DNA from: an uncultured Chloroflexia bacterium | Lineage (GTDB): Bacteria > Chloroflexota > Limnocylindria > Limnocylindrales > CSP1-4 | Reading direction: 5' to 3' | Length of the DNA stretch: 64,000 nucleotides | Assembly (NCBI GenBank): GCA_963823925.1 | Contig: CAWGNI010000001.1 | Location: forward strand, 19,608-83,607 | Part shown: one piece after another, positions 26,339 to 63,693 of the stretch | How positions within the stretch are numbered: the first letter of the stretch is position 1 | Layout of the letters: each line of letters begins with the position of its first letter | The notes under the pieces: generated by a model | Told to the model about the DNA's origin: nothing | What the model saw: the letters and a program-made list of their open reading frames with translations, nothing else | Databases searched by the model: none | Made by a program: the position numbers and the translations under genes

Positions 26339-27337
26339 TCCCGGCTCCTCGACGGGCGTCTCGGCATCGAGAGGCGTGGCCGGCTCTGGTGCTCCGCGCG
26401 GACGCGGGCCGGTCTGGGCGAGAATCACGCTGATCACGATGAGGCCGGCCCCGGCAAGCTGGATCGGTTCGAGCCGTTGGCCGAGCAGGAGCCAGGCCAG
26501 CGCGACGATGGTCAGCGGCTCGATGGTGCTCAGGAGCGCCGCCTGGGCCGCCCCGATGCGGCGAGCACCGGCGTAGAACGTCTGGATGGCGAGGAACGAC
26601 GCGAGGAAGGCGATGACCAGTACCGCCGGCCACGCGGCGGCCGGCACATCCGCCGGGTTCACCGAGCCACCGGTCGCCGCGGACGCGAGCGAGAACGTCA
26701 CCGCGGACGAGGTGACCATGATCGCCGCCATGACCGCCGCCACGCCGGTGGTGCCACCACCACCGTCCGCCTCGTGCCCCAGCCGATCGCGGCGTTCACC
26801 GGACAACCTTGCCGAAGCCAGGATCCAGATCGCGAAGATGGCCGACGACGCCATGACCAGGAGGATGCCCCCGACCGGTGGGGCGGTGGACAGGTCGATG
26901 CCGCCGAGAGCGAGGACGACCCCACACAGCGCCAGCACCACGGCCGCCCAGGGCCGCCGGCCCGGGAGCCGGGTCGCGAACCGGATCGACAGGACCGCGA
27001 CGATGACCGGGTAGGTGTAGACGAGGACGCCGGCGAGCGCCGCCGGGACGGTTTCGAGCGCCGCGTAGTAGGTCCCTGAGTTCCCGGTGAACAGGACGCC
27101 CAGCGCCACTGTCACGATCACCTGGCGTCGACCCAGGCGTCCGAGTGCCGATCGCCGGTGCGCCGAGACCGCGATCCAGAGCCAGGCGAGACCGGCCCCG
27201 ATCAGGAACCGCCAGGTGACCAGTTGCAGCCAGCCCATCCCGGTGTCGTAGGCCGGCCGGGCGAGGACGGTCGCCGAGCCGAACCCGACGGCGGCCACGA
27301 GGACCAGTCCGATGCCTGCCGCTCGACGACGATCCAC
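26225..27337 (-). CDS. EamA/DMT-family transporter
   Basis: 370 aa, 10 TM segments in two EamA halves. The acidic, Pro-rich C-terminal tail overlaps the convergent aldolase gene by 114 nt. Confidence 0.8.
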   Translation of the reverse strand: MDRRRAAGIGLVLVAAVGFGSATVLARPAYDTGMGWLQLVTWRFLIGAGLAWLWIAVSAHRRSALGRLGRRQVIVTVALGVLFTGNSGTYYAALETVPAALAGVLVYTYPVIVAVLSIRFATRLPGRRPWAAVVLALCGVVLALGGIDLSTAPPVGGILLVMASSAIFAIWILASARLSGERRDRLGHEADGGGGTTGVAAVMAAIMVTSSAVTFSLASAATGGSVNPADVPAAAWPAVLVIAFLASFLAIQTFYAGARRIGAAQAALLSTIEPLTIVALAWLLLGQRLEPIQLAGAGLIVISVILAQTGPRPRGAPEPATPLDAETPVEEPGSVGVGLAEDSPGTVGDVRDVRAEADEPEPERPVPGQG

Positions 27338-33337: not shown

Positions 33338-35845
33338 ATGGCAGTGACTCCTCAGGCGACCCTGTGGGCGGTTGGGCAAGCGGCCGCGCATCGGGTCGCC
33401 GACGCGGGGCGGCAGCTACTCGCGCGGCCGAGCCTGCTGTACCTGCTCTTGACGCCCCTAGCATTCCCGATCCTCGAGATGCTCGGGAAGCGCCAGAGTG
33501 CGGTCCAGTTCGCGAACGACGTTCTTGCCGGCCAGCTCCCGCTCATCTCGGTCATTCGCGCCGACTGGCTCAAGTTTGGGCCGACGCTCTGGAACCCTCA
33601 CCTCACGTCGGGCAACGCGACCATGGTCCAGATGCCGCTGCCTCCGTTTACGCCGGACTTGATCCTCAGCTTGATCGTGCCGCTGTTTGTCGCCTACTTC
33701 ATCGCCTATGCCGCGTTGATCTGGGTCGCCGGGTATGGAATGCACCTATTCCTGAGGGACTCGCTTCGTCTGCGGACCCCGGCGTGCGTCGTGGGCGGGG
33801 TCATCTATATGTTCTCCTTCTGGCTGTACATCTACGGCTACGCTGTCCCGTTGATTCCGTTCAGCCTCTGGCTGCTGGATCGCTGGGTGGATGCCAAGGA
33901 AAACCGCTGGCGCTGGGGCGTAGCCCTGGTTGTCACCGGCTGCCTTCAGCTGTACGCCGGCCTGCTCCAGCTGGCCGCCCTGGTCGCGGCACTGCAACTT
34001 GCCTACCTGTTGGCAACTAACTGGCGATCCGGCCGGGTTCGTAGGCTTGTCGCAGGATGGCTCGGAGTCTGGACGGTTGCCTGCCTCCTCTTCGCACCGG
34101 TCGCGGTCACGATGCTCGTGTACCTTCCCGGGTCGGTGCGGACGATCTGGAACCTGTTCTGGCTCTATCCAACGGCGCCCCTCGACGCGCTTCGCCAGAC
34201 GATGTCCCTTTTCGGGAGCACAATCGGGGCCATTCCAGTGACCGGATGGACGCGCGGGTCCGCCGAATACTCGGGCACGTTCTTCGTTGGCGGAATTGCG
34301 CTGGCCCTGCTGTACATCGGATTGTTTCGACCCCGCGATGCGCGCCTGAGGTTCCTGCTTGCGCTGCTGGCGGCGTTGCCCGTCGTCTATGCCGCCGACC
34401 TGATGTTGATTCCACTTCAGGCTCAACTCGGCCTCCTCAAATCGTTCCAGGTAACCCGCGTAGCCTCCCTGTTTCCGTTCGCCCTCGCCGCAAACGCGGC
34501 TGTTGGAGCAGATTCGCTCTTCTCCGGCCAGTGGCGTGACTTCTTCAGAGGTCGTGCCAGGGTGGCCGGTTTGGGTGTCCTGATGGTGATTTTGGCGGCA
34601 GAAGCCAGCGCCAGCCTGGTGAACTGGGCGAACCCAACAGAAGGGGGCCGGACTTCGTCCGGCTGGCTGCTCGCGGCCGTCGCAATCGGGGGCGGAGTAA
34701 TCCTGGGCGGGGCTCTGCTCCGGCACGTGGCCCGCACCGAGGGAATCAGAGTTGTCGCGGGCCCGCTCTTGCTGATATTTCTAGTGGGACTTGTCGGCGA
34801 GAGTGCGATCTATGCTCGTGCCGAGCGATATCTTCACGGGGGACTGGGAACGTATTCGGAGTACATGACGGTCGATCCGGGCCAGGCGTACATCGCCAGG
34901 CAGGCGAAGGGCGATCTGGCACGGACGTTGACCATCGGCTCCCCGACTAATCGCGCCCTGAACGCCGGTCTGTACGACGCTGGTGGGCTGGAGCCGATAT
35001 ACCCGCTGACGTACCACGAATTGTTCGGCGTGCTCACGGCCCCGCACCTGAGCAAGGACGCTGCGGATTGGCGGTATTTCAACTGGTGGGGTGAGAAGGC
35101 TTTTCCGTTTGGCCCGGAGATGAATTATCCAGTGGCGGACCTGATGGGCATCCGCTGGATCTGGGCTCGGGGCATCTCTCTCCAAGACTCGCGGCTGGTC
35201 AGCCGCTTCCAGTCTCGGGCCATCACCGTCTACGAGAACCTCGCTGTCTTCCCGAGGGCGTTTGTCGTTCACCAGGTGAAGGCGTTTGCGTCGGAGCCCG
35301 CGCTCCTGAGCGGGCTCGCAGATGCAAATGACGCGCAGCTTCGAAGCACCGCGTTCGCCGTCCAGGGAGAACAAATCCCCGGACTGCCGCCTTCCGGGTC
35401 GTCCGCAGCCTCAGATGTGAGCGTGACCCGGTACTCGCCAGAGCGTGTGGACTTGTCGGTCAAGACTTCCACACCCGGGCTGCTCATCCTGACTGACACG
35501 TATGCCTCAGGGTGGACGGCGACCGTCTGCGGCTCAGCGGTACCGATCTACCGCGTCGACGCCGCGTTCCGAGCGGTCTCCGTCCCAGATGGCACCTGCA
35601 CGGTCTCCTTCACATACCGTCCGCTGTTCACCTACGCGGGCTTCGTCGCGACGGGCGTCACCCTCGTCGCCTTGATCGGGTTCACCACGTTGATGTTCTG
35701 GCGCGGACGTCGACGAGGTAAGCGTGGTCGACGGTTGAGTCCGACCATCGTGACCAACTCCGGTGCGAACCACGACGCCACCGCTGACACAAGTTCGATC
35801 GCCGATGGGGCGCCATCTGGCGGGCGCCACCCACCCGCCGATTGA
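33338..35845 (+). CDS. 835-aa polytopic membrane protein with large C-terminal extracytoplasmic domain (YfhO/ArnT-like glycosyltransferase-type architecture; family call tentative)
   Basis: About 13 N-terminal TM helices, a soluble roughly 300-aa region, one terminal TM, and a basic tail (RGRRRGKRGRR). Uninterrupted frame. Confidence 0.75.
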   Translation: MAVTPQATLWAVGQAAAHRVADAGRQLLARPSLLYLLLTPLAFPILEMLGKRQSAVQFANDVLAGQLPLISVIRADWLKFGPTLWNPHLTSGNATMVQMPLPPFTPDLILSLIVPLFVAYFIAYAALIWVAGYGMHLFLRDSLRLRTPACVVGGVIYMFSFWLYIYGYAVPLIPFSLWLLDRWVDAKENRWRWGVALVVTGCLQLYAGLLQLAALVAALQLAYLLATNWRSGRVRRLVAGWLGVWTVACLLFAPVAVTMLVYLPGSVRTIWNLFWLYPTAPLDALRQTMSLFGSTIGAIPVTGWTRGSAEYSGTFFVGGIALALLYIGLFRPRDARLRFLLALLAALPVVYAADLMLIPLQAQLGLLKSFQVTRVASLFPFALAANAAVGADSLFSGQWRDFFRGRARVAGLGVLMVILAAEASASLVNWANPTEGGRTSSGWLLAAVAIGGGVILGGALLRHVARTEGIRVVAGPLLLIFLVGLVGESAIYARAERYLHGGLGTYSEYMTVDPGQAYIARQAKGDLARTLTIGSPTNRALNAGLYDAGGLEPIYPLTYHELFGVLTAPHLSKDAADWRYFNWWGEKAFPFGPEMNYPVADLMGIRWIWARGISLQDSRLVSRFQSRAITVYENLAVFPRAFVVHQVKAFASEPALLSGLADANDAQLRSTAFAVQGEQIPGLPPSGSSAASDVSVTRYSPERVDLSVKTSTPGLLILTDTYASGWTATVCGSAVPIYRVDAAFRAVSVPDGTCTVSFTYRPLFTYAGFVATGVTLVALIGFTTLMFWRGRRRGKRGRRLSPTIVTNSGANHDATADTSSIADGAPSGGRHPPAD

Positions 35846-36212: not shown

Positions 36213-36797
36213 GTGAGCCGCCGCCATCACGGCCGACCGCATCAACGCGTCCGCGGGCCGGTCGAGGCGCCCCGACGACCGACTGGGGTGAGCCCCGAAA
36301 CCAGGGATCGAGTCGAGCCCGGCGAGGAGGCGGCAAGCGACGGGACGTCCACCGCCGCCTCGCGGTCGACCCCGGTCTCCGCGCCGCCGGATCCGGTTCC
36401 CGCGACAGCCCCCGCGTTCGTCCCGCACCGCGACGCCCCGCCACCTGCCACGAACGGCGGATCGGGAAACGGGGCATCGCATCAGGCCGGCTCGCCGCAC
36501 GGCATCCCGGATCGGCACGGCCAGTGCACGGCTCCGCAGCTCCGGCGGTTCATCAAGAGCCGCCCATATGTCCCGATGCACGAGCTTCGTCGCCAATTCG
36601 GGATCGACGGCGGGGATGATGATGTGACCGGGGTGCGTCTCGAGCCCGGCTGGGTCTATGTCGGTCTGCCGACGCGGGAGGGGGGCCTGCTCGGGGAGCT
36701 CCTCCAGGCCGGCGAGATCGGATACGAGCTGTCGCTCGACCCGTGTACCCCGATCGTCATCGGCGTCTACCCGATGCGCCCGATCCCGAGATCCTGA
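36213..36797 (+). CDS. Hypothetical protein (Pro/Ala/Ser-rich N-half, structured C-half)
   Basis: GTG start, 194 aa. The C-terminal QCTAPQLRRFIKSRPYVPMHELRRQFGIDGG...GEIGYELSLDPCTPIVIGVYPMRP looks protein-like. No family recognised and the start is uncertain. Confidence 0.5.
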   Translation: MSRRHHGRPHQRVRGPVEAPRRPTGVSPETRDRVEPGEEAASDGTSTAASRSTPVSAPPDPVPATAPAFVPHRDAPPPATNGGSGNGASHQAGSPHGIPDRHGQCTAPQLRRFIKSRPYVPMHELRRQFGIDGGDDDVTGVRLEPGWVYVGLPTREGGLLGELLQAGEIGYELSLDPCTPIVIGVYPMRPIPRS

Positions 36798-36801
36798 CGC
36801 C

Positions 36802-37575
36802 CTAGCGGGATCGACCGGCGGCCTGCGCCAGGAGCGTCTTTGCTTCGAACGGGGTGACGTCCGGGTAGGCGGACCGCAGACGCGTGAGCAACCCCGCGAT
36901 GTGTGGAGCGGCGAAGCTGTTGCCCGTCGCGATGATCTTCGAGCCACCGAGCCAGGCGACCGGGACGTCGACACCCCAGGCGCCGAACTCGACCGGAGGG
37001 TGCGGGTTGTAGAAGAAGGTCAGCGGATCCGGGATGTCGTGGGCCGCGACCGATACGACCGACGAGAAGACCGACGGGTAGCTCTCGTGCCCCTGCATGT
37101 TGCTCGCCGAGCACACGAGCAGGCAGTCGGCGAAGTACGCCTGGTCGACCAGGTCGTGGAACGTCGGGAACAGCTGTTCGCTGCGTGACGACAGGCTCAG
37201 GTTGGCCACCGGGATCCGATGTTCGACGACCCAGTCGATGGCGTGGGCGAACGCCAGGCCCTTGCCCTTGTTATCCGGCCCCAACACCCGGATCGAGATG
37301 AGCTCGGCCTCGGGGGCGAGGGAATGGATGATCCCGGCGCAGGCCGTCCCATGGCCCACGACGTCTCCGCCGTCTCCATCGTCGACGACTTCGCCGTCAC
37401 CGTCCTGGGTGAGTTCTACCCGCAGGCTTCTGACCAGCCGGCCGCCGACCGCCGGGTTATCGCCGTCGACGCCAGAATCGATGATGGCGACGGTCACGCC
37501 CTGCCCACGAGCCGTCCAGCCAGTCGATCGGAGCGGCGTCGCTCGGGAATGGCCCCGTCCTTGCCAGCTCGCCAC
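36802..37575 (-). CDS. Small S8 (subtilisin-family) serine peptidase lacking signal peptide and propeptide
   Basis: 257 aa. Triad in VAIIDSGVD (D), VVGHGTACAG (H) and ATGNSFAAPHIAG (S), with oxyanion CSASN. Confidence 0.85.
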   Translation of the reverse strand: MASWQGRGHSRATPLRSTGWTARGQGVTVAIIDSGVDGDNPAVGGRLVRSLRVELTQDGDGEVVDDGDGGDVVGHGTACAGIIHSLAPEAELISIRVLGPDNKGKGLAFAHAIDWVVEHRIPVANLSLSSRSEQLFPTFHDLVDQAYFADCLLVCSASNMQGHESYPSVFSSVVSVAAHDIPDPLTFFYNPHPPVEFGAWGVDVPVAWLGGSKIIATGNSFAAPHIAGLLTRLRSAYPDVTPFEAKTLLAQAAGRSR

Positions 37576-37623
37576 GCTTCGGCTCCCGGAAGGGCTCGCT
37601 CCATGCCGGATACAGCTCGGATG

Positions 37624-38421
37624 TCACCGGCGGAGTCTGCCCAGCCTGCCGCTCGCGTCACGTCCGTCCGCCGCACGATGACGGCCGATGACCGAGAGGA
37701 GTTCGATCGCGAGTTCGCGATCTGCGGCAGAGGCGTGGCGCATCGAGGCGATGGCGTCCACGAACGCCCAGAACCGATCGTCGCCCGACCGGCGGCGGGT
37801 CGCGGCCGAGACGATCTCGGCGACCGCGGGATCCGTGTCGGCGCCTCCGTCGATCCGCAGCACGTCGGCCAGCAGCGCCCGGAGTTCGCGGGCGCGCGCC
37901 GACACCTTGATCGCGGTCGCCGCCTGTCGCGCGAAGTGGGCAGCGGTCTCGATGTCCTGGATGGAGAATGGACCCTCGAGCTTGTCGATGACCTCGAGGA
38001 CGCCGATGGTTCGGGCGCCGTCCTCGAGCGGCACGGCGAGGAGTGAGCGGGGCACGTAGCCGGTCTTGTCGGCGACGTTCCGGCCGAATCTGGGGTCCTG
38101 GGCAGGGTCGGTGATCGCGATGCTCTCGCCGGTCGTGAACACGTACCCGACGATCCCCTGGGCCGGACCGATGGTCATGCCCACCACCGGCTGTCCCTGG
38201 GCGCCGGCTGCGACCACGAACCGCAGGTTTCCCGAAGCCTCGTCGAGCAACGCGATCGAGGCGGCTTCGGCGGCGAAGATGCCGACCGTGGCATCCACGA
38301 TCGTCCGCAGCAGGACCATCTCGGGGTCCGTATCAAGATGGACCGCGGTATCACCCCGGAGCGCGATCTCGCGGAGCAGGGCCTGCGCGTCGGGCGACAG
38401 GTCCTTCGAGCGCTTCACCAT
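37624..38421 (-). CDS. GAF-domain protein
   Basis: 265 aa. GAF core (ASIALLDEASGNLRFVVAAG...GIVGYVFTTGESIAI...SLLAVPLEDGARTIGVLEV) plus a helical C-terminal region. The start overlaps the CRP stop by 7 nt. Confidence 0.8.
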   Translation of the reverse strand: MVKRSKDLSPDAQALLREIALRGDTAVHLDTDPEMVLLRTIVDATVGIFAAEAASIALLDEASGNLRFVVAAGAQGQPVVGMTIGPAQGIVGYVFTTGESIAITDPAQDPRFGRNVADKTGYVPRSLLAVPLEDGARTIGVLEVIDKLEGPFSIQDIETAAHFARQAATAIKVSARARELRALLADVLRIDGGADTDPAVAEIVSAATRRRSGDDRFWAFVDAIASMRHASAADRELAIELLSVIGRHRAADGRDASGRLGRLRR

Positions 38422-39140
38422 TGCGCGCGCTGTGCCATGCGGCGAACGTCGAGGACCACCAGGTCATGCGGCTCGACCCGCAGGAGGTCCTCGGCCACGA
38501 GTTCGGCCACGACCCGGTTGACGCTCTGCCGGGTGCCGCCGATCATCGCCGCGAGCTCGGATTGCGTATACGCCCGGCCGAGCCTGACGTCCTGCATCTC
38601 GCCAGGGGCGACCTCCTCGGCCATCCGTGCCAGACGGCTCGCGAGCCGCCCGCCGAGGTCGAGGAAGTGGAGCTCGGACACGTGGGTCGTCAGGCGTCGC
38701 AGGTCAAGCGTCAGCGTTCGCAGGATCGCCGTCCGGAAGGCCTCGTTGTCCGCCATCAGCGGCCCGAACGCCTCCTGGGTCAGGGTGTAGGTGACCGTCG
38801 GCTCGACCGCCACCGCCGTCGCCGAGCGGGGTGCGTCGTCGAGCAGCACCAGTTCGCCGAAGACATCGCCCGGTGCGAGCGTCACCAGGATCGCCTCCGC
38901 GCCGTCCTGCGACTCGATCGAGATCTTGGCCCTGCCCGACGCGATGACGTGCATGGCGTCACCTGGATCGCCTTCGTGGAAGATCGTCTCTCCGGCCCTG
39001 AACCGCCGCTGGCGAAGCATCGGAGCGATCAACTCCAGGTCCTCAGGCGCGACGCCGCGGAACAGGCGCGAGCGACCGATCGCATCGATGACCGCGCGAT
39101 CCTGGGCGGGCGTCGTCCGCGCCGCTGGTTGGTCGGTCAT
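38415..39140 (-). CDS. CRP/FNR-family transcription regulator (cNMP-binding domain + HTH)
   Basis: ATG 39140 inside ORF 38415..39245, GAGGAGGA upstream. RLFRGVAPEDL, GDVFGELVLLDDAPRSATAVA, and HTH YTQSELAAMIGGTRQSVNRVV. Confidence 0.9.
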   Translation of the reverse strand: MTDQPAARTTPAQDRAVIDAIGRSRLFRGVAPEDLELIAPMLRQRRFRAGETIFHEGDPGDAMHVIASGRAKISIESQDGAEAILVTLAPGDVFGELVLLDDAPRSATAVAVEPTVTYTLTQEAFGPLMADNEAFRTAILRTLTLDLRRLTTHVSELHFLDLGGRLASRLARMAEEVAPGEMQDVRLGRAYTQSELAAMIGGTRQSVNRVVAELVAEDLLRVEPHDLVVLDVRRMAQRAQW

Positions 39141-39229
39141 GGCGTGCGCGTCCTCCTCGTTCAGCGTCGGTCGCGAATCGGCCCGACCCGAGTGTAGGAC
39201 GCGATCCCCGGCTGGTCGAGGTTCTGTCG

Positions 39230-40885
39230 TCATGGCCGGCTCCATGATCCGCGATATCGATCGAGCAACTGGGTGGTGAGACCCGGGCCTGCGTCGACCA
39301 GGCCGAGGAACCCGTCCCGGTCGAGGGCGAAGAGCCGGCCACCAGATGCGGCCGTCACGGTCGCCGTCCGGGGAACCGAGGTCAGCAGGCCGATCTCGCC
39401 GAAGACATCCCCGGGACCGAGCGTCCGAAGCTCGGTCCGTTCGCCGCTGTCAGACCGCTGCGAGACGGTGTAGGTGCCGGTGTCGATGAAGTAGAAGCGA
39501 TCGGCTGGCTCTCCCTGCCCGACGATGACCTCCCCGGGCGCGACGTCGACCGGGACCACCCGCCGGGCGGCCGCCTCGAGGCGGGCTGGGAGGACGCCGC
39601 CGAACACGCTCGAGCGGATGATCTCCAGCCGCCTGGGTTCGAGTGCCGACGGGACCAGCGCGCCACTCGACCGAAGCAGGCCGATCGAAAGGATGCCCAC
39701 CACGCCAGCGCCGACCGCGATGGTGACGGTGGCGACCCCCGGCCCATAGGCATCGGCCAGCAGTGGGGCCGCGAACGCGCCGGCGATCGCAGCCATCGAA
39801 CTCGGGATCTGGAGGAAGCCCATCGCCCGACCGCGTTCGTCGTCCGGCACCACCCGCTGCAGGATCGTCGCATTGATCACGTCGAGCAGGAGCAGGGCTC
39901 CGACGGCGATGCCGATCGCCAACAGGGCCGGCCCGAGGTCGTTCGTGAAGCCGAGGACGATCAGACCCAGGCCACCGACCAGGCTGCCGACGATGATCCC
40001 GACATCCAGTCGTCGAAGGACGACCCAGCCGGCAGCGATCCCTGCCACGATCCCGCCGATCCCGGTCGCGGCGTTGAGGTAGCCGGTGGCCGCTTCGCCC
40101 GCCCCGAGCGAGTCGACCGCGATGACGACCGTCAGGACGCTGAGTCCGCCGCCCGCGAAGCTCGTCGCGATATCGAGCGCGATGACCCCGGGGATCCGGG
40201 CGATGATCGCCATCCAGCCGGTCCCATCGGCTGCAGCGGCCGCGTCGGCAGCGTCGTCCTCGGCGGACCGCGCGGCGGCCTCCGACTCGCTCAGGAGCGT
40301 CCGACGGCTCGGTAGCGTCGCGATGATGATCGACACGAACGCGAACGTCGCGGCATTGAGGATGAACCCCAGCGCCAGGCCACCGACGGCGATCAGCACC
40401 CCCGCGATCGCCGGTCCGATGAAGTAGGCGAGGTTGTCAAGGGTGGCCCAGACGCTGTTGGCCGGCCCGAGATCGCGCTCGTCATCGACCAGCGACGGCA
40501 GGTACGAACCGATGGCCGGCCCGAAGAAGGTCGACACGCAGGCTGCGAGGATCGCCACCGCGACGATCCAGAGCGTTGCTGCTCCGGTCAGGACGAGGAT
40601 CGCCAGGACGACCTGGAGGAGGCCCCGGATGATGTCGGTCGTCAGCAGGATGAGACGGCGGTCGAACCGGTCGGCCACGATCCCGGCCGGGATCGACAGC
40701 AGCAGCGACGGCGCGATCCGGGCGGCGCCCACCAGCCCGAGCGCCAGCGCATCGTGCGACTCCTGGTACACGACGATCAACATCGCGACCATGTACAGCC
40801 AATCGCCGATCGACGAGATGAACTCGCCGGCCATCAGGCGGGCGAGTCGAGAGTTGGCGAAGACGCGACGGTAGGCAGTCAGCAC
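39230..40885 (-). CDS. MFS transporter fused to a C-terminal cyclic-nucleotide-binding domain
   Basis: GTG start, 551 aa. About 12 TM segments (GIVADRFDRR MFS loop motif), then GQGEPADRFYFIDTG...GDVFGEIGLLTSVPRTATVTA. Confidence 0.85.
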   Translation of the reverse strand: MLTAYRRVFANSRLARLMAGEFISSIGDWLYMVAMLIVVYQESHDALALGLVGAARIAPSLLLSIPAGIVADRFDRRLILLTTDIIRGLLQVVLAILVLTGAATLWIVAVAILAACVSTFFGPAIGSYLPSLVDDERDLGPANSVWATLDNLAYFIGPAIAGVLIAVGGLALGFILNAATFAFVSIIIATLPSRRTLLSESEAAARSAEDDAADAAAAADGTGWMAIIARIPGVIALDIATSFAGGGLSVLTVVIAVDSLGAGEAATGYLNAATGIGGIVAGIAAGWVVLRRLDVGIIVGSLVGGLGLIVLGFTNDLGPALLAIGIAVGALLLLDVINATILQRVVPDDERGRAMGFLQIPSSMAAIAGAFAAPLLADAYGPGVATVTIAVGAGVVGILSIGLLRSSGALVPSALEPRRLEIIRSSVFGGVLPARLEAAARRVVPVDVAPGEVIVGQGEPADRFYFIDTGTYTVSQRSDSGERTELRTLGPGDVFGEIGLLTSVPRTATVTAASGGRLFALDRDGFLGLVDAGPGLTTQLLDRYRGSWSRP

Positions 40886-40957
40886 GGCGGCGCCGAACGC
40901 GACGAAACGCCCCGGGGAACGGGTCCCCGAGGCGTGATCGTCAGGCGGATCAGTCGA

Positions 40958-41482
40958 CTAATGCCGGGTCTGCTCGTCCGGGCCGCCCTCGCCGCCGGTG
41001 GCGTAGTCACGGTTTCGGAGATACCCCTCTTCGGTCGGGACGGCCGGCCGAGCCGTGAACTTCTGGCCCTCGGTGTCGTCTTCGGTCGGGACGGCCGGCC
41101 GAGCCGTGAACTTCTGGCCCTCGGTGTCGTCTTCGGTCGGGACGGCCGGCCGAGCCGTGAACTTCTGGCCCTCGGTGTCGTCTTCGGTCGGGACGGCCGG
41201 CCGAGCCGTGAACTTCTGGCCCTCGGTGTCGTCTTCGGTCGGGACGGCCGGCCGAGCCGTGAACTTCTGGCCCTCGGTGTCGTCTTCGGTCGGGACGGCC
41301 GGCCGAGCCGTGAACTTCTGGCCCTCGGTGTCGTCTTCGGTCGGGACGGCCGGCCGAGCCGTGAACTTCTGGCCCTCGGTGTCGTCTTCGGTCGGGACGG
41401 CCGGCCGAGCCGTGAACTTCTGGCCCTCGGTGTCGTCTTCGATCGGGGCGGCTGATTCGCCCGGACGGTGCTTCTGGTCCAT
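40958..41482 (-). CDS. Acidic tandem-repeat protein, 174 aa: 8 identical 17-aa units (DDTEGQKFTARPAVPTE)
   Basis: Internal ATG of ORF 40958..41503, with AAGGAG 5 nt upstream. The chosen frame has G/C at 15 of 17 third positions per unit, against 11/17 and 8/17 for the other two minus frames. No signal peptide or TM segment. Confidence 0.7.
   Translation of the reverse strand: MDQKHRPGESAAPIEDDTEGQKFTARPAVPTEDDTEGQKFTARPAVPTEDDTEGQKFTARPAVPTEDDTEGQKFTARPAVPTEDDTEGQKFTARPAVPTEDDTEGQKFTARPAVPTEDDTEGQKFTARPAVPTEDDTEGQKFTARPAVPTEEGYLRNRDYATGGEGGPDEQTRH
41028..41441. repeat. Perfect tandem repeat, 51-bp unit x 8 (plus 6 bp of a ninth, diverged copy)
   Basis: Unit TCTTCGGTCGGGACGGCCGGCCGAGCCGTGAACTTCTGGCCCTCGGTGTCG starts at 41028, 41079, 41130, 41181, 41232, 41283, 41334 and 41385 with no mismatch. 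Confidence 0.97.
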
Positions 41483-41667
41483 CGTGTCTCCTTCTGGTGC
41501 CATATCGCCCGTCGCCTTTTCGGGCCGTTACCGAGAGAGTAAAGGGTCGAATACGCACCGCGGAAGCCCAGGTCGGACTTCAACGCTGTCGGATGGCCGA
41601 CATCCGGCACGGCGAGCACCGCCGCAGTCCGCCGGTCCGAGGACGATCCTGGGCTCGAGTGACAAGC

Positions 41668-42537
41668 TCAATAGACCTCAGGGATGAAGGTCTGGTCCGA
41701 CATCGGCGGCCGGATGTACCCCTGATCGTCCTGACGGGGCGGCAGGACGATGGGTTCGGGGGTGAGGTCCTGGTAGGGGATCAGGCCGAGGAGATGTCTG
41801 ATGAGGTTCAGCCTCGCCCGCTTCTTGTTGTCCGCGTTGACCACGTACCAGGGCGCCTGCTTGATATCGGTGTAGGAGAACATCTCATCCTTGGCTCGCG
41901 AGTACTCGACCCAGCGCGAGCGGGATTCGAGATCCATCGGGCTGAGCTTCCAGCGTTTGGTCGGGTCCTCAAGTCGGCTCTGGAAGCGGCGTTCCTGCTC
42001 GGCGTCGCTGACCGAGAACCAGTACTTGACGACGATGATCCCCGAGTGCACGAGCATCCGCTCGAAAGCAGGGCAATCGCGCAGGAAGTCCTGGTATTCC
42101 TGCTCGGTGCAGAAGCCCATGACCCGTTCGACCCCGGCGCGGTTGTACCAGCTCCGGTCGAACAGGACCATCTCCCCGGCGGCCGGCAGGTGCGCGACGT
42201 AGCGCTGGAAATACCACTGGGACTTCTCACGCTCGGTCGGCGTTCCCAGGGCGACGACCCGGCAGAAACGCGGATTGAGGGTGAGGGCGAGCGTCTTGAT
42301 CGCGCCACCTTTCCCCGCGGCGTCGCGGCCCTCGAAGATCACGACGACGCGAAGACCCTTCTGCTTGATCCACTCGAGTTGCTTGACGAGTTCGACCTGG
42401 AGGATGGCGAGCTCGCGGAGGTACGCCTTGTTCGAGAGCGTCCGGACGGCGGAGCCGATCTCCTCGACCGGCGGATCTGCCCACACGTCGGCCAGTTCGG
42501 TGCTTTGCTGCTGCTGTTCGTCCCTCGTCCTGGCCAC
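41668..42537 (-). CDS. ppk2: Polyphosphate kinase 2 (single-domain PPK2)
   Basis: GTG 42537 inside ORF 41668..42909, GAGGTG upstream. Walker A FEGRDAAGKGG, also FDRSWYNR and DxxxKRWKLSPMD. Confidence 0.9.
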   Translation of the reverse strand: MARTRDEQQQQSTELADVWADPPVEEIGSAVRTLSNKAYLRELAILQVELVKQLEWIKQKGLRVVVIFEGRDAAGKGGAIKTLALTLNPRFCRVVALGTPTEREKSQWYFQRYVAHLPAAGEMVLFDRSWYNRAGVERVMGFCTEQEYQDFLRDCPAFERMLVHSGIIVVKYWFSVSDAEQERRFQSRLEDPTKRWKLSPMDLESRSRWVEYSRAKDEMFSYTDIKQAPWYVVNADNKKRARLNLIRHLLGLIPYQDLTPEPIVLPPRQDDQGYIRPPMSDQTFIPEVY

Positions 42538-42626
42538 GGCGCACCTCGGTTGCCGGTCGCGCCCCACACGCGGCGCCCGCAGAGATGATAGCCCTCGTAT
42601 CGCGCGATCCCGAGCGTCGGGCGACG

Positions 42627-43211
42627 CTAGCCGGTCGGGATCTCGATACCCTCGCGCCGAAGGAGATCTCGCTTCATCGCGATCCGCTCCTCTCGGCCGC
42701 CCCATGCGTCGCCACCGTACCCGCCGATCGTGCCATCGGCGGCGACGACTCGGTGACACGGGATGAGCAGGCCGACCGGATTGCGCCCGACGGCACCGCC
42801 GACGGCACGAGCCGCGCGTGGCGCGCCGATCCGCCGGGCGATCTCGCCGTAGCTCGCGGTGTGACCCCATCCGATACCCGCCACCGCAGCAAGGACTCGA
42901 CGATCCCATCCCGGCCGATCGGCAAGGTCGAACGACACATCATGCCGCGGCGGGCGCCCGTCGAGCAGCGATCCCAGGGCAGCCACGGCGGACACAAGGT
43001 GGCTCCGAGCCGGCTCGTCGCCATCCGGATCTGCGACATCCGGATCCACGACGTGGCGGGGATCGCCGCCGAGGCGACGACGCAGGCGTGCTTCGAGCGA
43101 CGGGCCGGTGGTGAACCACTCGACCGCAACGACCCCGTCCCGGGTCGCGGCCACATGGAACGGCCCCCAGGGCCCGGGGACCGTCGTCCAGATCGCGATC
43201 CGCTCCTCCAT
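42627..43211 (-). CDS. ogt: Methylated-DNA--protein-cysteine methyltransferase
   Basis: 194 aa with active site IPCHRVV and YGEIARRIGAPRAARAVGGA. Confidence 0.9.
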   Translation of the reverse strand: MEERIAIWTTVPGPWGPFHVAATRDGVVAVEWFTTGPSLEARLRRRLGGDPRHVVDPDVADPDGDEPARSHLVSAVAALGSLLDGRPPRHDVSFDLADRPGWDRRVLAAVAGIGWGHTASYGEIARRIGAPRAARAVGGAVGRNPVGLLIPCHRVVAADGTIGGYGGDAWGGREERIAMKRDLLRREGIEIPTG

Positions 43212-56643: not shown

Positions 56644-58089
56644 TCAGCGTCCCCCGAGGTCGGCCAGGGCCTCGATCCCCGGCAGCCGCCGCGGATCGGC
56701 GACGGCGCCGGCGATGGCGCTCGCGGCCGCGGTCAGGGGTGACGCCAGGAACGTCCGACCGCCCTTGCCCTGGCGTCCTTCGAAGTTGCGGTTGCTCGTG
56801 CTCACGGCGTACTGCCCGGGTTGGAGCTGGTCGCCATTCATGGCGATGCACATCGAGCAGCCGGCCTCGCGCCATTCGGCGCCGGCGGCCTTGAAGATCT
56901 CGGCCAGGCCTTCCTGTTCTGCTTCGCGCTTCACCTCGTCCGACCCCGGCACCACCATCAGCCGGACGCCGGCGGCGACATGGCGGTCCTTGAGGACTGC
57001 CGCCGCGAGCCTGAGGTCGCTGATCCGACCATTGGTGCAGCTCCCGACGAAGACGACGTCGACCTTCTGGCCGAGGATCGGCTGGCCCGGCCGGAGGTCC
57101 ATGTACTCGAGCGCGCGCTCCAGCGCCCGTCGCTGGGCCGGGTCGTCCTGGTCCTCCGGCGATGGGACCGGGCTCGAGATCGGGACGCCCATCCCGGGAT
57201 TGGTGCCGTAGGTCACCATCGGCTCGAGTCCGTCGGCGTCGATCGTGATCGCACGGTCGTAGACCGCGCCGTCATCAGTCGGGAGCCTGCGCCAGCGCGC
57301 GACGGCGGCATCCCAATCCGACCCGGCCGGTGCGTGCGTGCGGCCGTGCAGGTAGTCGAACGTCGTGTCGTCGGGGGCGATCAGCCCAGCGCGGGCTCCA
57401 CCCTCGATGCTCATGTTGCAGATGGTCATCCGCTGTTCCATCGTCAGGCCGCGGATGGCCGTGCCCGTGTACTCGAACACATGCCCGGTCCCGCCGCCGA
57501 TCCCGATCCGTGTGATCAGCGCGAGGATGATGTCCTTGGCGCTGACGCCCGGCTGGAGGCGGCCGTCCACCCGGACCTCGAACGTCTTCGGATCGCGCTG
57601 AAGGAGCGTCTGGGTGGCCAGGACCATCTCCACTTCGCTCGTGCCGATACCGAAGGCCAGCGCGCCGAACGCTCCGTGCGTGCTCGTGTGCGAGTCGCCG
57701 CATACGATCGTCATCCCCGGCTGGGTCAACCCGAGCTGCGGCCCGATGACGTGGACGATCCCCTGGGCGGGATCGCCGATACCGTGGAGCGGGATCCCGA
57801 ACTCCGCACAATTGGCCTCGAGCTGGTTCACCTGGGCGAGGGCCATCGCATCAGCGAACGGCAGGCTTCGGTCGGTCGTCGGGATGGAGTGGTCGGCGGT
57901 CGCCACGGTCTGCCCGGGACGCCGGACCGTCAGGCCACGCGCGCGCAGCCCGGAGAAGGCCTGCGGACTCGTGACCTCGTGGACGAGGTGGAGGTCCACC
58001 CCGAGCACCGCCGGCGCCCCCGGGTCCTGGGTCACGACGTGATCCGTCCAGATCTTGTCGACGATGGTGCGCGGGATGGGTGCGGTCAT
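56644..58089 (-). CDS. leuC: 3-isopropylmalate dehydratase large subunit
   Basis: ATG 58089; only the last 481 aa of the 1172-aa ORF 56644..60162 are used. [47 protein letters not shown] and NRNFEGRQG. Confidence 0.95.
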
Positions 58090-62059: not shown

Positions 62060-63693
62060 GCCCGGTACCGCGGCCCGCCGGCCCGTTCGTGGCGGCGGGC
62101 ACCGTCCGGATCTTCGACACGACCCTGCGCGACGGTGAGCAGGCTCCGGGGGCTGGTCTGACCGCTGCCGAGAAGCTCGACGTGGCGCGGCAACTGGCCC
62201 GCCTCAAGGTGGACGTCATCGAGGCGGGGTTCCCGGCTGCGTCGCCGGGGGACTTCGAAGCGGTCCGCCGGATCGCCAAGGAGACGCGCGGGGGCATCGC
62301 GGTCGCCGCCCTCGCCCGCTGCAAGGATGGCGATCCCCAGCGGGCCATCGAGGCGATCAAGGTCGCGGAACGACCTCATCTGCACGTGTTCATCGCGACC
62401 AGCGACATCCACCTCAAGCACAAGCTCCGGATCGACCGCGAGACCGCCCTGGCCGAGGCGGTTCGGTGGGTCCGGCACGGTCGGGAGCAGCTGGGCCGCG
62501 ATGCCGAGATCGAGTTCTCCGCCGAGGACGCCTCGCGGACGGACCTCGACTACCTGCTCCAGGTCTATGCAGCTGTCGTGGAAGCCGGCGCATCGACGGT
62601 CAACATCCCGGATACGGTCGGTTACGCCATCCCGTCGGAGTTCGGCGCGCTCGTCGAACGCGTCGTCCAGCTCGTCGGGGACCAGGCGACCGTGAGCGTC
62701 CACTGCCACAACGATCTGGGGCTCGCCACAGCGAACACGCTGGCCGCGGTCCAGGCCGGCGCCCGTCAGGTCGAGGTCACCATCAATGGACTCGGCGAGC
62801 GCGCCGGGAACGCCTCCCTCGAGGAGGTCGTGATGTCGCTGCGCACGCGCCCCACCCAGTTCCCGGACCTCGCGTCCGGCGTCGCCACCGAACAGCTCAC
62901 GGCGGCCAGCCGGTTGGTCAGCTACCTCACTGGCTTCGCGATCCAGCCGAACAAGGCGGTCGTCGGCGGCAATGCCTTCGCACATGAGTCGGGGATCCAC
63001 CAGGACGGCGTGATCAAGAACCCGCTGACGTACGAGATCATGACCCCGCAGTCGGTCGGGCTGTCCGGAAGTCAACTGACGATCGGCAAGCTGTCCGGTC
63101 GGCGGGGCCTCCAGGGCAAGCTCAAGGAGCTCGGGTACGACTACCAGGGCGAGGCCCTCGACGAGATCTACGCGCAGGCCGTCGCCCTCGCCGATGCCAA
63201 GAAGGAAGTCACCGACGCCGACCTGCACGCACTCGTCGAGCAGCGCTCGTCGGAGGTGCCCGCTTCGGTCGCCCTCATCGGCTGGAGTGAGACATCCTCG
63301 CACGGCGGCCACGCGACCGGATCCGTCACCGTCTCGATCGGCGGAGCGGAACGGGCCGCGGAGGCGACCGGCAACGGGCCGGTGAACGCGCTCTTCGGGG
63401 CGGTCGACCAGGCGCTGCAGCCCGTCCTCGGTTGGCATCCGATCCTGACCGAGTACGAGATCAAGGCGGTCACGGCCGGCGAAGATGCCCAGGGCCAGGT
63501 CCTGGTTCGCTGTCGACGATCGTCGGACGAGGGTCCGGGGGCGCTCGTGGTGACCGGGCACGGGTTGTCGACGAACATCATCGAGGCGTCGCTCGAGGCG
63601 TATCTCGAGGCGGTCAACAAACTCCATGGGGCCGAGATCAACGGCGTTGCGGTCGCGTTCGTCGCGCCGCGGCTCAGTGAGTCCGCCCCGTGA
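62056..63693 (+). CDS. leuA: 2-isopropylmalate synthase
   Basis: ATG 62056 inside ORF 61606..63693. [39 protein letters not shown], and a C-terminal LeuA dimerisation/regulatory domain. ATGA overlap with ilvC. Confidence 0.95.

Follow-up and report, generated by a model that had tools for sequence, protein, structure and literature searches.

A tandem-repeat gene encoding a predicted disordered acidic protein, linked to a subtilase, a Crp-type regulator and a cNMP-domain MFS transporter in soil Chloroflexota and Actinomycetota

The repeat locus and its neighbourhood

The window analysed here is a 64,000-nucleotide stretch of the genome of an uncultured Chloroflexia bacterium (Limnocylindrales; assembly GCA_963823925.1, contig CAWGNI010000001.1). 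It contains an array of perfect 51-bp tandem repeats within a small open reading frame, referred to below as REP. REP is followed on the same strand by genes for a transporter, a regulator, a GAF-domain protein and a protease. The features of the locus are as follows.

41587..41602 (no strand): 16-bp palindrome TGTCGGCCATCCGACA (TGTCG-N6-CGACA, the geometry of a CRP site), centred about 112 nt upstream of the REP ATG; putative operator of the cassette's Crp-family regulator.
41488..41493 (minus): Shine-Dalgarno sequence AAGGAG, 5 nt upstream of the ATG at 41482.
40958..41482 (minus): REP gene, 174 aa, with the leader MDQKHRPGESAAPIE, eight repeat units and the tail EGYLRNRDYATGGEGGPDEQTRH.
41028..41435 (minus): array of eight identical 51-bp (17-codon) units, each encoding DDTEGQKFTARPAVPTE.
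40907..40935 (minus): 12-bp G+C-rich stem-loop between the REP stop and the MFS start; putative attenuator, terminator or mRNA stabiliser.
39230..40885 (minus): MFS transporter (MFS_1/MFS_3, DHA3/EntS-like) with a C-terminal cyclic-nucleotide-binding domain.
38415..39245 (minus): Crp/Fnr-family regulator (cNMP-binding domain plus HTH_Crp_2), overlapping the end of the MFS gene and the start of the GAF gene.
37624..38421 (minus): GAF-domain protein.
36802..37575 (minus): minimal S8 subtilase of 257 aa, with no signal peptide or prodomain visible by inspection.
36528..36797 (plus): small conserved ORF of about 90 aa (CTAPQLRRFIKSR...VGVYPMRP), convergent with the S8 gene; possibly a lineage-specific accessory gene whose membership of the cassette is uncertain.

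The original prediction, made from the sequence alone, described eight head-to-tail, mismatch-free 51-bp units encoding an acidic protein, and this observation holds. The period-51 self-match continues 6 nt beyond the array to 41441, so that the ninth unit diverges at 41442 as predicted, and TRF reports 41028-41452 with a period of 51, 8.3 copies, 99% matches and a score of 836, far beyond chance. The minus-strand ORF translates exactly as predicted. Two details need correction: five of the six frames rather than all of them are open across the array, since one plus frame has a TGA in every unit, and while G/C occupies 15 of 17 third codon positions per unit in the chosen frame, as predicted, the other two minus frames give 12/17 and 9/17, not 11/17 and 8/17. 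Across the ORF, GC3 is 0.86 in this frame against 0.72 and 0.52. The protein has no Cys or Trp and no hydrophobic stretch, its net charge is -2 per unit and -19 overall, and AlphaFold2 gives a pLDDT of 50.9 and no secondary structure, in keeping with predicted disorder.

The interpretation offered in the original prediction, namely a minus-strand gene of no nameable family that had undergone recent expansion or ongoing homogenisation, is likewise supported. The frame is corroborated by the recurrence of the encoded motif DDTEG[QH], in the same frame, in genomic loci from two phyla and in loci recovered independently through the neighbouring protease. The start MDQKHRPGE is conserved in the relatives L057 and L030 (L numbers denote individual loci), and an equivalent CAAGGAG precedes the gene in L057.

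A family of DDTEG[H/Q]-repeat proteins

The window REP gives only sub-threshold noise in Pfam (DUF1103 at 19.2 bits against a cut-off of 25.2) and nothing in NCBIfam. Of ten diverse relatives none matches a curated family as a family; the one Pfam score above a cut-off, EF-1_beta_acid at 41.3 bits against 25.7 in an actinomycete relative, is summed over the acidic repeats with no individual stretch passing, and NCBIfam has nothing above cut-off. A phmmer search against 1.84 billion representative proteins gave only 67 hits, led by long unrelated repeat proteins, and is not useful for sizing the family because the variable spacers defeat single-sequence search. A degenerate DNA pattern, by contrast, recovered at least 120 genomic loci in soil Chloroflexota and Actinomycetota. 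These loci define a family with tandem [DE][DE]DDTEG[HQ] motifs separated by variable, often basic spacers, and with the logo D.83 D.98 T.86 E.97 G1.0 [H.79/Q.21]. Taking two or more in-frame [DE][DE][TV]EG[HQ] motifs 11-25 residues apart in a small ORF without a signal peptide as the criterion, the window ORF belongs to it, with eight motifs at a 17-residue period. The original prediction tentatively mentioned short actinobacterial ORFs with D-x-E-G-H-type motifs; such ORFs are real, and 79% of units in the family end in H, but the closest relatives of REP are Chloroflexota MAGs rather than Actinobacteria.

The array evolves in concert. Of 123 REP loci, 96 carry in-frame arrays, many of them 97-100% identical, with periods that are always multiples of 3. 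The original prediction had proposed that repeat number be compared among relatives and had expected it to vary. L057, the nearest relative, has six copies instead of eight, and its two amino-acid differences are fixed in all of its copies. Copies are identical within a genome; between the window and L057 all 7 nucleotide differences per unit fall in the spacer (5 of them non-synonymous) and none in the motif. The expectation that such arrays are hard to assemble from short reads is borne out by at least 14 short-read contigs that end inside the array, while several long-read MAG relatives (L001, L006, L031, L112) carry frameshifts within theirs. It is important to point out that an array of 408 identical bases could be mis-assembled in copy number in the window as well. 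The gene was apparently not called in this genome: none of six candidate ORFs across the array is present in a collection of 15 billion proteins, whereas the window MFS is, although without a gene position on record.

A conserved but reshuffled gene cassette

The original prediction did not include the genes around REP, the operator-like palindrome or the hairpin. Blind clustering of neighbouring ORFs, with a GC3 filter because an unfiltered run was swamped by low-complexity high-GC ORFs, gives only four widespread families: GAF (63 loci), Crp (59), S8 (58) and MFS (55). These counts come from truncated 8-kb stretches, and tblastn raises them to 81, 86, 78 and 60 of the 123 REP loci, respectively. 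The Crp figure is an upper bound, because the query includes the cNMP-binding domain that the MFS also carries. Of the 60 loci with an MFS gene, 51 have the fused cNMP domain. Gene order is reshuffled between lineages, but GAF and S8 always stay together; the window order on the minus strand, REP, MFS, Crp, GAF, S8, is the same as in L057. About 25 of the 123 REP loci show no cassette partner by tblastn, which is partly explained by truncation, and L005 and the membrane-anchored variants also lack partners. In the reciprocal analysis of loci centred on the S8 gene, GAF is present in 30 of 30, directly upstream of S8 in loci with at least 1 kb of flank, Crp is present in 27 of 30, and a motif-bearing small ORF was tallied in about 20 of the 24 loci of at least 6 kb. 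No other gene family is present in more than about 9-16 of the 123 loci. The small convergent ORF is found by tblastn in 16 loci, most of them labelled Chloroflexota MAGs, and has no Pfam match. A copper P-type ATPase near REP in the window and its closest relatives is linked in only 6 loci, a possible linkage to PPK2 was rejected because PPK2 is absent from relatives, and a plasmid search with the GAF protein gave only generic GAF hits.

The nearest solved relatives of the GAF protein are the cNMP-binding GAF domains of PDE2/5/10 and CyaB. Nine S8 reading frames extend more than 200 aa upstream and are possible fusions, with Pfam showing GAF plus Peptidase_S8 in one product in L001; GAF is a sensor domain normally found in cytoplasmic proteins. 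The MFS protein belongs to efflux-type families (TIGR00900/DHA3, EntS, Mef, Tap), from which the direction of transport is assumed. A scan with PADLOC yielded only domain-level hits, of the cNMP-binding domain to Pycsar effectors (E of about 1e-6 to 1e-11) and of a generic subtilase, with no hit for REP or GAF and hence no match to a known anti-phage defence system.

Sequence features that may govern REP expression

The TGTCG-N6-CGACA palindrome is the only such site in the 64-kb window, and TGT-N10-ACA occurs upstream of REP in 85 of 111 loci, against 6.8% of background 400-nt windows. The recognition helix of the cassette Crp, GGTRQSVN(R/K), is conserved in 56 loci. In domain architecture and in the 5-6-5 geometry of the putative operator the system resembles E. 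coli CRP and its TGTGA-N6-TCACA sites; the half-site is TGTCG rather than TGTGA, however, the recognition helix reads TRQSVN(R/K) against SRETVGR, and the regulator appears to be local and dedicated to the cassette.

Downstream of REP, the 86-nt fold that contains the hairpin has a dG of -45.7 kcal/mol (z = -3.75). A hairpin of -20 kcal/mol or stronger lies within 90 nt of the stop in 82 of 103 loci, against 27 of 103 controls (p = 3e-17), and is conserved in structure but not in sequence. A consensus scan for sigma-70 promoters and intrinsic terminators found nothing, as expected for a 68% G+C genome and a hairpin that lacks a clean U-tract, and an Rfam scan of 40500-42000 was also negative.

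The S8 protease and its co-variation with the motif

The catalytic D/H/N/S residues are invariant in all 74 aligned cassette S8 sequences, with one alignment gap at the Asp column. The closest solved relatives are Bacillus intracellular subtilisin proteases (ISP; PDB 7y6m, 7xr8, 2x8j; E = 3e-22 to 3e-17), which likewise lack a signal peptide and a classical I9 prodomain. ISPs are general cytoplasmic proteases regulated by an N-terminal LIPY/F extension, whereas here regulation is presumably through a separate or fused GAF domain, and a repeat protein, the proposed dedicated substrate, is genetically linked.

The residue after the oxyanion Asn, which aligns with subtilisin 156, a classical determinant of the S1 pocket, co-varies with the last residue of the REP motif. 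It is Val in 49 of 55 H-type cassettes and Met, Tyr, His or Leu in all 18 Q-type cassettes, while in ISPs and BPN' position 156 is Glu. In the window protease the equivalent is residue 160, a Met. The Q-type cassettes form two clades that are each closer to H-type proteases (61-66% identity) than to each other (45-48%); the co-variation rests on only two independent H/Q switches.

A possible multi-copy peptide precursor

Our preferred reading, to which we assign a probability of about 0.5, is that REP is a multi-copy precursor under cyclic-nucleotide control, its functional element being the acidic motif [DE][DE]DDTEG[H/Q], repeated eight times and separated by fast-evolving spacers. In this view the Crp-family regulator would bind the upstream palindrome and switch on REP, with the hairpin keeping REP mRNA in excess over the downstream genes; the GAF protein would couple a cyclic nucleotide to the activity of the adjacent, apparently cytoplasmic subtilase; the subtilase would cut REP at each motif, probably with H/Q in the S1 pocket, yielding up to about eight near-identical 17-mers; and the MFS pump, gated by its cNMP-binding domain, would export the peptides. 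The analysis itself establishes the gene and its family, the linkage of the cassette, the operator-like palindrome and the hairpin, the concerted evolution of the array and the co-variation between S8 and motif. Every step of the chain is inferred, including regulator binding, cleavage and its position, export, the identity of the nucleotide and the role of the peptides, be it as signal, antimicrobial or metal-binding agents, and there are no expression, cleavage or export data. Several observations sit uneasily with this reading: no modifying enzyme is linked, so the products would be plain peptides; the spacer in the window (KFTARPAVPTE) has no obvious bioactive signature; and single-motif relatives with a conserved basic C-terminal tail exist (L139, L156, L166), so that multi-copy release is not universal and the motif could instead be a docking site.

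A more far-reaching and doubtful version holds that a single second messenger simultaneously switches on transcription, activates a GAF-controlled subtilase that cuts after each DDTEG[H/Q] and opens the exporter. This would be the first peptide signal or antimicrobial system described for Limnocylindria-type Chloroflexota, and a widespread, overlooked one in soil Actinomycetota. If the inferred mechanism holds, it would add a protease coupled to a GAF sensor, an MFS pump gated by a cNMP-binding domain, and a ribosomal multi-copy precursor in phyla where peptide signalling has scarcely been described.

The main alternative, which we consider unlikely, is that REP works as a whole cytoplasmic polyampholyte, either as a hydrophilin-like stress protectant or as a buffer for divalent cations or metals through its Asp/Glu/His clusters, induced by the Crp regulator and removed by the S8 protease when no longer needed, with the pump handling something else. 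The predicted disorder, the strong acidity alternating with basic spacers, the prevalence of His at the end of the motif, His-rich relatives (L014: DDDTEGHGHHHKNF), the soil and desiccation-prone carriers and the nearby copper ATPase all fit. However, H and Q are interchangeable even within one protein (P0006, L042), which is unexpected for a metal ligand, a conserved six-residue motif next to hypervariable spacers points to specific recognition rather than bulk physico-chemistry, and neither the linkage to an efflux pump nor the co-variation with the S1 pocket is explained. EF-hand or RTX calcium motifs were dismissed by inspection, as the spacing does not fit. Less likely still, REP could regulate the protease as a multivalent pseudosubstrate, inhibitor or scaffold, or else regulate the Crp protein, with the true substrates of the protease elsewhere. 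Linkage and co-variation would indicate that REP and S8 interact but not that REP is consumed, and single-motif forms with a conserved C-terminal helix look like docking modules. Yet the expansion of an inhibitor to 8-13 identical copies with rapidly changing spacers is hard to explain, a strong promoter of its own, with the putative operator and the hairpin, would imply high REP expression relative to the protease as for precursor genes, and the pump is again unaccounted for.

We regard it as improbable that REP is a RiPP precursor modified on Thr, Asp, Glu or Lys by an enzyme encoded elsewhere, for example an ATP-grasp ligase as in graspetides, with S8 only as the leader or spacer peptidase. 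A conserved leader and motif with variable cores, and the conserved Thr and acidic residues, match such an architecture, but no ATP-grasp, radical SAM, YcaO or Lan enzyme emerged from the neighbour clustering over 123 loci, and NCBIfam, which holds many RiPP precursor models, gives no hit. A non-coding array, or an assembly artefact with a collapsed or expanded structure, is very unlikely: short reads cannot resolve 408 bp of perfect repeat, but an artefact could change the copy number and not the existence or frame of a gene whose motif is conserved in frame across phyla and which is supported by codon bias, Shine-Dalgarno site, putative operator and hairpin.

Comparison with known systems

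Multi-copy precursors cut by subtilisin-family proteases include cyanobactin PatE with PatA/PatG and the fungal Kex2-processed repeat precursors (alpha-factor, ustiloxin/dikaritins). As in these, one ORF carries several near-identical units, short conserved sequences flank variable segments, an S8-family protease is encoded or acts alongside, and units are homogenised within a gene and diverge between species. What differs is that no heterocyclase, oxidase, macrocyclase insert or other tailoring enzyme is linked, that the only protease is a minimal, apparently cytoplasmic subtilase paired with a GAF sensor rather than a PatA/PatG-type enzyme, that export would be by an MFS pump with a cNMP-binding domain, that the motif is unrelated to those systems, and that the hosts are Chloroflexota and Actinomycetota.

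Peptide-pheromone and bacteriocin cassettes (Phr/Rap with subtilisin/Epr/Vpr processing, and LanP leader peptidases) share the logic of small precursor, S8 protease, dedicated exporter and cognate regulator, and the MFS C-terminus weakly matches TIGR03896, the cNMP-binding 'bacteriocin-type transport-associated' model (E = 2.3e-5, below its cut-off). Here, however, the N-terminus of REP has no hydrophobic segment, Sec signal or double-glycine leader, which together with the intracellular-type protease argues against a Sec-exported, Phr-like precursor; processing would be cytoplasmic, there is no Rap/RNPP receptor and no Lan enzyme, the precursor is multi-copy, and control would be by three putative cyclic-nucleotide sensors (Crp, GAF and the cNMP-MFS). 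A Pup/UBact-type modifier, with a C-terminal GGQ/GGE (or RxGE/Q) and linked PafA/Dop ligases, was also rejected, as the protein ends in ...EQTRH, the motif mostly ends in His, and no ligase family appears among the neighbours.

The family and its cassette are abundant in soil and sediment genomes, with at least 120 and at least 600 stretches recovered in two scans of the sequence collection, yet the family is absent from Pfam, NCBIfam and PADLOC, and literature searches on the motif, the combination of cassette domains, the operator half-sites and repeat precursors found no description within the literature searched. At least one cultured carrier, Aeromicrobium terrae (CC-CFT486), holds REP next to GAF and S8, and Geodermatophilus amargosae carries REP and the putative operator.

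The repeat array and its reading frame

The observation on which this analysis was based holds. The window carries eight identical 51-bp units that encode part of a small acidic protein, here referred to as REP. The period-51 self-match extends slightly beyond the eighth unit, and TRF assigns the array a score of 836. Five of the six reading frames are open across the array, whereas one plus frame contains a TGA in every unit. The minus frame starting at the ATG at 41482 has G/C at 15 of 17 third positions per unit, compared with 12 and 9 for the other two minus frames, and it is preceded by AAGGAG at a spacing of 5 nt. The features of the region relevant to the following sections are:

41028-41435: the eight identical 51-bp units, with the period-51 self-match ending at 41441
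41482-40958, minus strand: REP
41587-41602: 16-bp palindrome upstream of REP, TGTCGGCCATCCGACA, a putative operator
40907-40935: core of the hairpin following the REP stop
40885-39230, minus strand: MFS transporter with a cNMP-binding domain (MFS-cNMP)
39245-38415, minus strand: Crp/Fnr-family regulator
38421-37624, minus strand: GAF-domain protein
37575-36802, minus strand: S8 peptidase

The REP frame encodes MDQKHRPGESAAPIE-(DDTEGQKFTARPAVPTE)x8-EGYLRNRDYATGGEGGPDEQTRH, a protein that has no Cys or Trp and a net charge of -19. AlphaFold2 with a shallow alignment results in a pLDDT of 50.9, a pTM of 0.14 and no secondary structure, which is consistent with disorder.

None of six candidate ORFs across the array (window 40754-41687) is present in a collection of 15 billion proteins, while the adjacent MFS protein is. 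REP was thus apparently not called, or was called differently, in the public annotation of this genome.

An unannotated protein family

REP is a real gene of a large family that is not accounted for in the curated databases. Pfam and NCBIfam give nothing for the protein and nothing meaningful for ten diverse relatives; the single Pfam score above a cut-off among the latter is summed over repeats, with no individual stretch passing. A word-indexed search of 5.8 billion proteins returned 16 weak hits, and what these share is DDTEG[QH] repeated at intervals. A scan of 185,579 species genomes with a degenerate DNA pattern for two such motifs 9-19 codons apart subsequently yielded at least 120 loci. 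These derive from Chloroflexota, mostly Limnocylindria-type MAGs, from Actinomycetota (Acidimicrobiia, Ilumatobacteraceae, Nocardioidaceae, Mycobacteriales and Streptosporangiaceae), and include two isolates, Geodermatophilus amargosae and Aeromicrobium terrae.

The logo over 422 distinct units is [DE][DE]-D(.83)-D(.98)-T(.86)-E(.97)-G(1.0)-[H.79 / Q.21], followed by a variable, Arg/Lys-rich spacer, and the period is mostly 15-18 residues. It is important to point out that the conservation of the motif in this set is partly by construction; however, the motif was recovered independently in loci found through the neighbouring protease (see below). Sub-families share conserved N-terminal leaders: the group that includes the window protein has M[ND][QTS][KR][HR]RPGE, and another group has MDNYRRRPPMEGFSRPGSLGGEA. 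The nearest relative of the whole region is locus L057 (L numbers denote individual loci), from an 'uncultured Chloroflexia' MAG, which is 77% identical at the nucleotide level over 36497-41299; the affinity of the region is therefore most likely with Chloroflexota and not with actinobacteria.

Not every relative is a multi-copy protein. Single-motif or few-motif relatives (L139, L142, L156 and L166, as well as the tails of L097, L094, L096, L110 and of the proteins P0010 and P0013) end in a conserved basic C-terminal segment (...EGH-x3-4-NP.L...LA.ARE.[DE]IQR...K/R-rich) that may represent the ancestral form and that the window protein lacks. In addition, a separate class of proteins (L012, L022, L026, L040, L072 and L135) carries 2-3 DD(T/V)EGH motifs between apparent beta-strands of an N-terminal domain, followed by a transmembrane segment and a low-complexity tail. 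These genes are not next to the cassette described below, although in L135 one lies 7 kb from the S8 gene; most of them still have a TGTC-N8-GACA palindrome upstream, so they may belong to the same regulon.

Concerted evolution of the arrays

TRF-detectable arrays are present in 96 of 123 loci, with periods that are all multiples of three (39-192 nt). Many are 97-100% identical internally, such as those in L030 (8.8 x 48 nt at 100%), L014 (12.3 x 54 nt at 98%) and L097 (10.5 x 48 nt at 99%). L057 has 6 units of DDTEGQKFNARGAVPTE, compared with 8 of DDTEGQKFTARPAVPTE in the window as assembled, a copy number that rests on the assembly alone in the absence of reads. The 7 nucleotide differences per unit (2 synonymous, 5 non-synonymous) all lie in the spacer, and each is fixed in every copy of its genome.

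At least 14 short-read contigs end inside the array. In several long-read (contig_N style) MAGs (L001, L006, L031, L033, L076, L103, L105 and L112) the reading frame switches inside the repeats, so that DDTEGQ alternates with TTPRA and RRHRGP read-outs. These switches are either homopolymer sequencing errors or real decay, and gene callers then produce chimeric proteins such as P0002. The interpretation given in the original prediction, that the units are homogenised, likely to vary in copy number and hard to assemble from short reads, is therefore supported.

A conserved gene cassette

To explore the genomic context, all ORFs of at least 90 aa were taken from the 123 loci plus the window, filtered for coding-like GC3 and clustered by all-against-all BLASTP. 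Only four neighbour families are widespread: a GAF-domain protein (63 loci), a Crp/Fnr regulator (59 loci), an S8 peptidase (58 loci) and an MFS transporter (55 loci). Since the loci are uncentred 8-kb chunks, these counts are lower bounds. tblastn with the window proteins finds S8 in 78 loci, GAF in 81, Crp in 86 and the MFS in 60, of which 51 have the fused cNMP-binding domain; the Crp figure is an upper bound, because that query also contains a cNMP-binding domain. No modifying enzyme or other family recurs in this clustering, and PADLOC gives only domain-level hits.

Gene order and orientation are reshuffled between lineages, the commonest order being Crp> REP> GAF> S8> MFS>, but GAF>S8 always stay adjacent and co-directional. 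Nine S8 reading frames extend more than 200 aa upstream, which suggests GAF-S8 fusion, and Pfam shows GAF and Peptidase_S8 in a single product in L001. In the window all five genes run on the minus strand, and the last four (MFS-cNMP, Crp, GAF and S8) have overlapping or closely spaced coding regions.

As a reciprocal test, metagenome contigs were scanned with an alignment of cassette S8 proteins, which returned at least 600 stretches, of which 572 were confirmed. In loci with at least 1 kb on both sides, GAF is present in 30 of 30 and Crp in 27 of 30. By our tally, a small ORF bearing the motif (often DDVEGH) is present in about 20 of the 24 loci of at least 6 kb, and some of these are single-motif forms that consist of a leader, DDVEGH and the conserved basic tail (...NP.L...LA.ARE.[DE]IQR...).

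Properties of the cassette components

The S8 protein is a minimal 257-aa subtilase with no signal peptide or prodomain apparent from its sequence. Its closest solved relatives are Bacillus intracellular subtilisin proteases (ISPs), and the catalytic Asp/His/Asn/Ser residues are invariant in all aligned cassette members. The GAF domain is closest to the cyclic-nucleotide-binding GAFs of PDE2/5/10 and CyaB, while the MFS matches MFS_3/EntS-like and DHA3-type efflux models. Together with the Crp regulator, the cassette thus has three putative cyclic-nucleotide sensors: Crp, the GAF domain and the cNMP-MFS. Nine actinobacterial loci (L018, L019, L034, L071, L087, L104, L108, L111 and L123) also encode a large class III adenylate cyclase-ATPase protein (about 1100 aa) near the cassette, a possible local source of the cyclic nucleotide.

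Regulatory signals around REP

A 16-bp palindrome with CRP geometry and the consensus TGTCG-N6-CGACA lies upstream of REP. TGT-N10-ACA occurs within 400 nt upstream in 85 of 111 loci, compared with 6.8% of background 400-nt windows. The window has a single site, the only one in the 64 kb, whereas in several actinomycete loci (L011, L020, L025, L042, L070, L114 and L118) two operator-like palindromes lie exactly 23 bp apart. The cassette Crp has a conserved recognition helix, GGTRQSVN(R/K), in 56 loci, which fits a dedicated regulator-operator pair.

A strong hairpin follows directly after the REP stop. In the window the 86-nt fold has a dG of -45.7 kcal/mol (z = -3.75). Across loci the best 40-nt hairpin within 90 nt of the stop has a median of -26.5 kcal/mol, compared with -17.9 at control positions 350 nt further on (Mann-Whitney p = 3e-17). 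The hairpin sequences differ between lineages, so it is the structure that is conserved. This arrangement of promoter, gene and hairpin ahead of processing and export genes is typical of precursor-peptide genes.

Co-variation between the S8 protease and the motif

When cassettes are split by the last residue of the motif, 55 are H-type, 18 are Q-type and 1 is mixed. The S8 alignment column most associated with this split is the residue immediately after the oxyanion-hole Asn, which is Val in 49 of 55 H-type proteases, Met, Tyr or His in the Chloroflexota Q-type clade (Met160 in the window), and Met or Leu in the actinomycete Q-type clade. With that segment masked, each Q clade is 61-66% identical to H-type proteases, while the two Q clades are only 45-48% identical to each other; the switch therefore happened at least twice. 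HMMER aligns this position with residue 156 of subtilisin and of the ISPs, which together with residue 166 is one of the two classical determinants of P1 specificity. With only two independent events, the association is suggestive of S8 reading the motif rather than proof. H and Q are also interchangeable within single proteins (the protein P0006 and the REP of L042), which fits a residue recognised by a protease pocket better than a metal ligand.

A model for REP function

The sequence analyses establish that REP is a real protein, predicted to be disordered, that it is genetically and evolutionarily coupled to a GAF-S8 protease pair, a Crp regulator with its own putative operator and a cNMP-domain MFS of the efflux type, that its arrays evolve in concert, and that only the hexapeptide motif is constrained. 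We are highly confident that the gene is real and part of this cassette. The steps that would connect these components are, by contrast, inferred: a cyclic nucleotide would induce REP through the Crp regulator and activate S8 through the GAF domain, S8 would cleave at each motif, probably after H/Q, and the resulting peptides would leave the cell through the MFS pump. In the window there would be up to about eight of them, most with the sequence KFTARPAVPTEDDTEGQ, plus the leader and tail fragments, and they could act as signals, antimicrobials or chelators. We assign a probability of about 0.5 to this substrate-and-export model.

Alternatively, REP could function as a whole protein in stress protection or cation buffering, which seems unlikely but is the strongest of the competing explanations. 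A role as a pseudosubstrate or regulator is less likely still, as is a RiPP precursor with unlinked tailoring enzymes, and an artefact or non-coding repeat is very improbable.

In this view the system would work like the multi-copy peptide precursors that are processed by subtilisin-family proteases, such as cyanobactin PatE/PatA/PatG and the Kex2-processed fungal repeats, and it also resembles the precursor-protease-exporter-regulator cassettes of bacteriocins and pheromones. It does not fulfil the criteria of any of these, as it has no tailoring enzymes, no Sec or double-glycine leader and no macrocyclase domain, while processing would be cytoplasmic and three putative cyclic-nucleotide sensors are present. 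No curated family and no paper describing it were found, although the literature that could be searched is incomplete and a prior description cannot be excluded. We regard it as a putative ribosomal peptide precursor cassette that differs from the known ones in these respects; that it represents a distinct cyclic-nucleotide-gated peptide secretion system is possible, but less likely than not.

Other features of the region

A PPK2 polyphosphate kinase gene (window 41668-42909, minus strand) sits between the operator region of REP and the Ogt/Cu-ATPase genes. In the closest relatives (L057, L001 and L043) the Ogt side is syntenic but PPK2 is absent, and the gene therefore looks like a lineage-specific insertion and not part of the cassette. 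The listed ORF (413 aa) has about 155 residues upstream of the PPK2 domain, so the true start is probably later.

At the other end, a small ORF of about 90 aa (CTAPQLRRFIKSRPYVPMHELRR...VGVYPMRPIPRS; window 36528-36797, plus strand) lies convergent with the S8 gene. It is 62-94% identical in 14 full-length matches among 16 loci, most of them Chloroflexota MAGs, lies directly upstream of REP in L002, and has no Pfam match. About 1 kb beyond the S8 end of the cassette lies an 835-aa polytopic membrane protein with DUF6044 and YfhO matches (window 33338-35845, plus strand), which was not found as a conserved neighbour. TRF also reports four other short, imperfect tandem repeats in the window, at 37343-37396, 27025-27064, 57756-57800 and 63581-63612 (periods 27, 21, 21 and 12, respectively; about 2-2.7 copies); the first lies inside the S8 gene, and none resembles the REP array.
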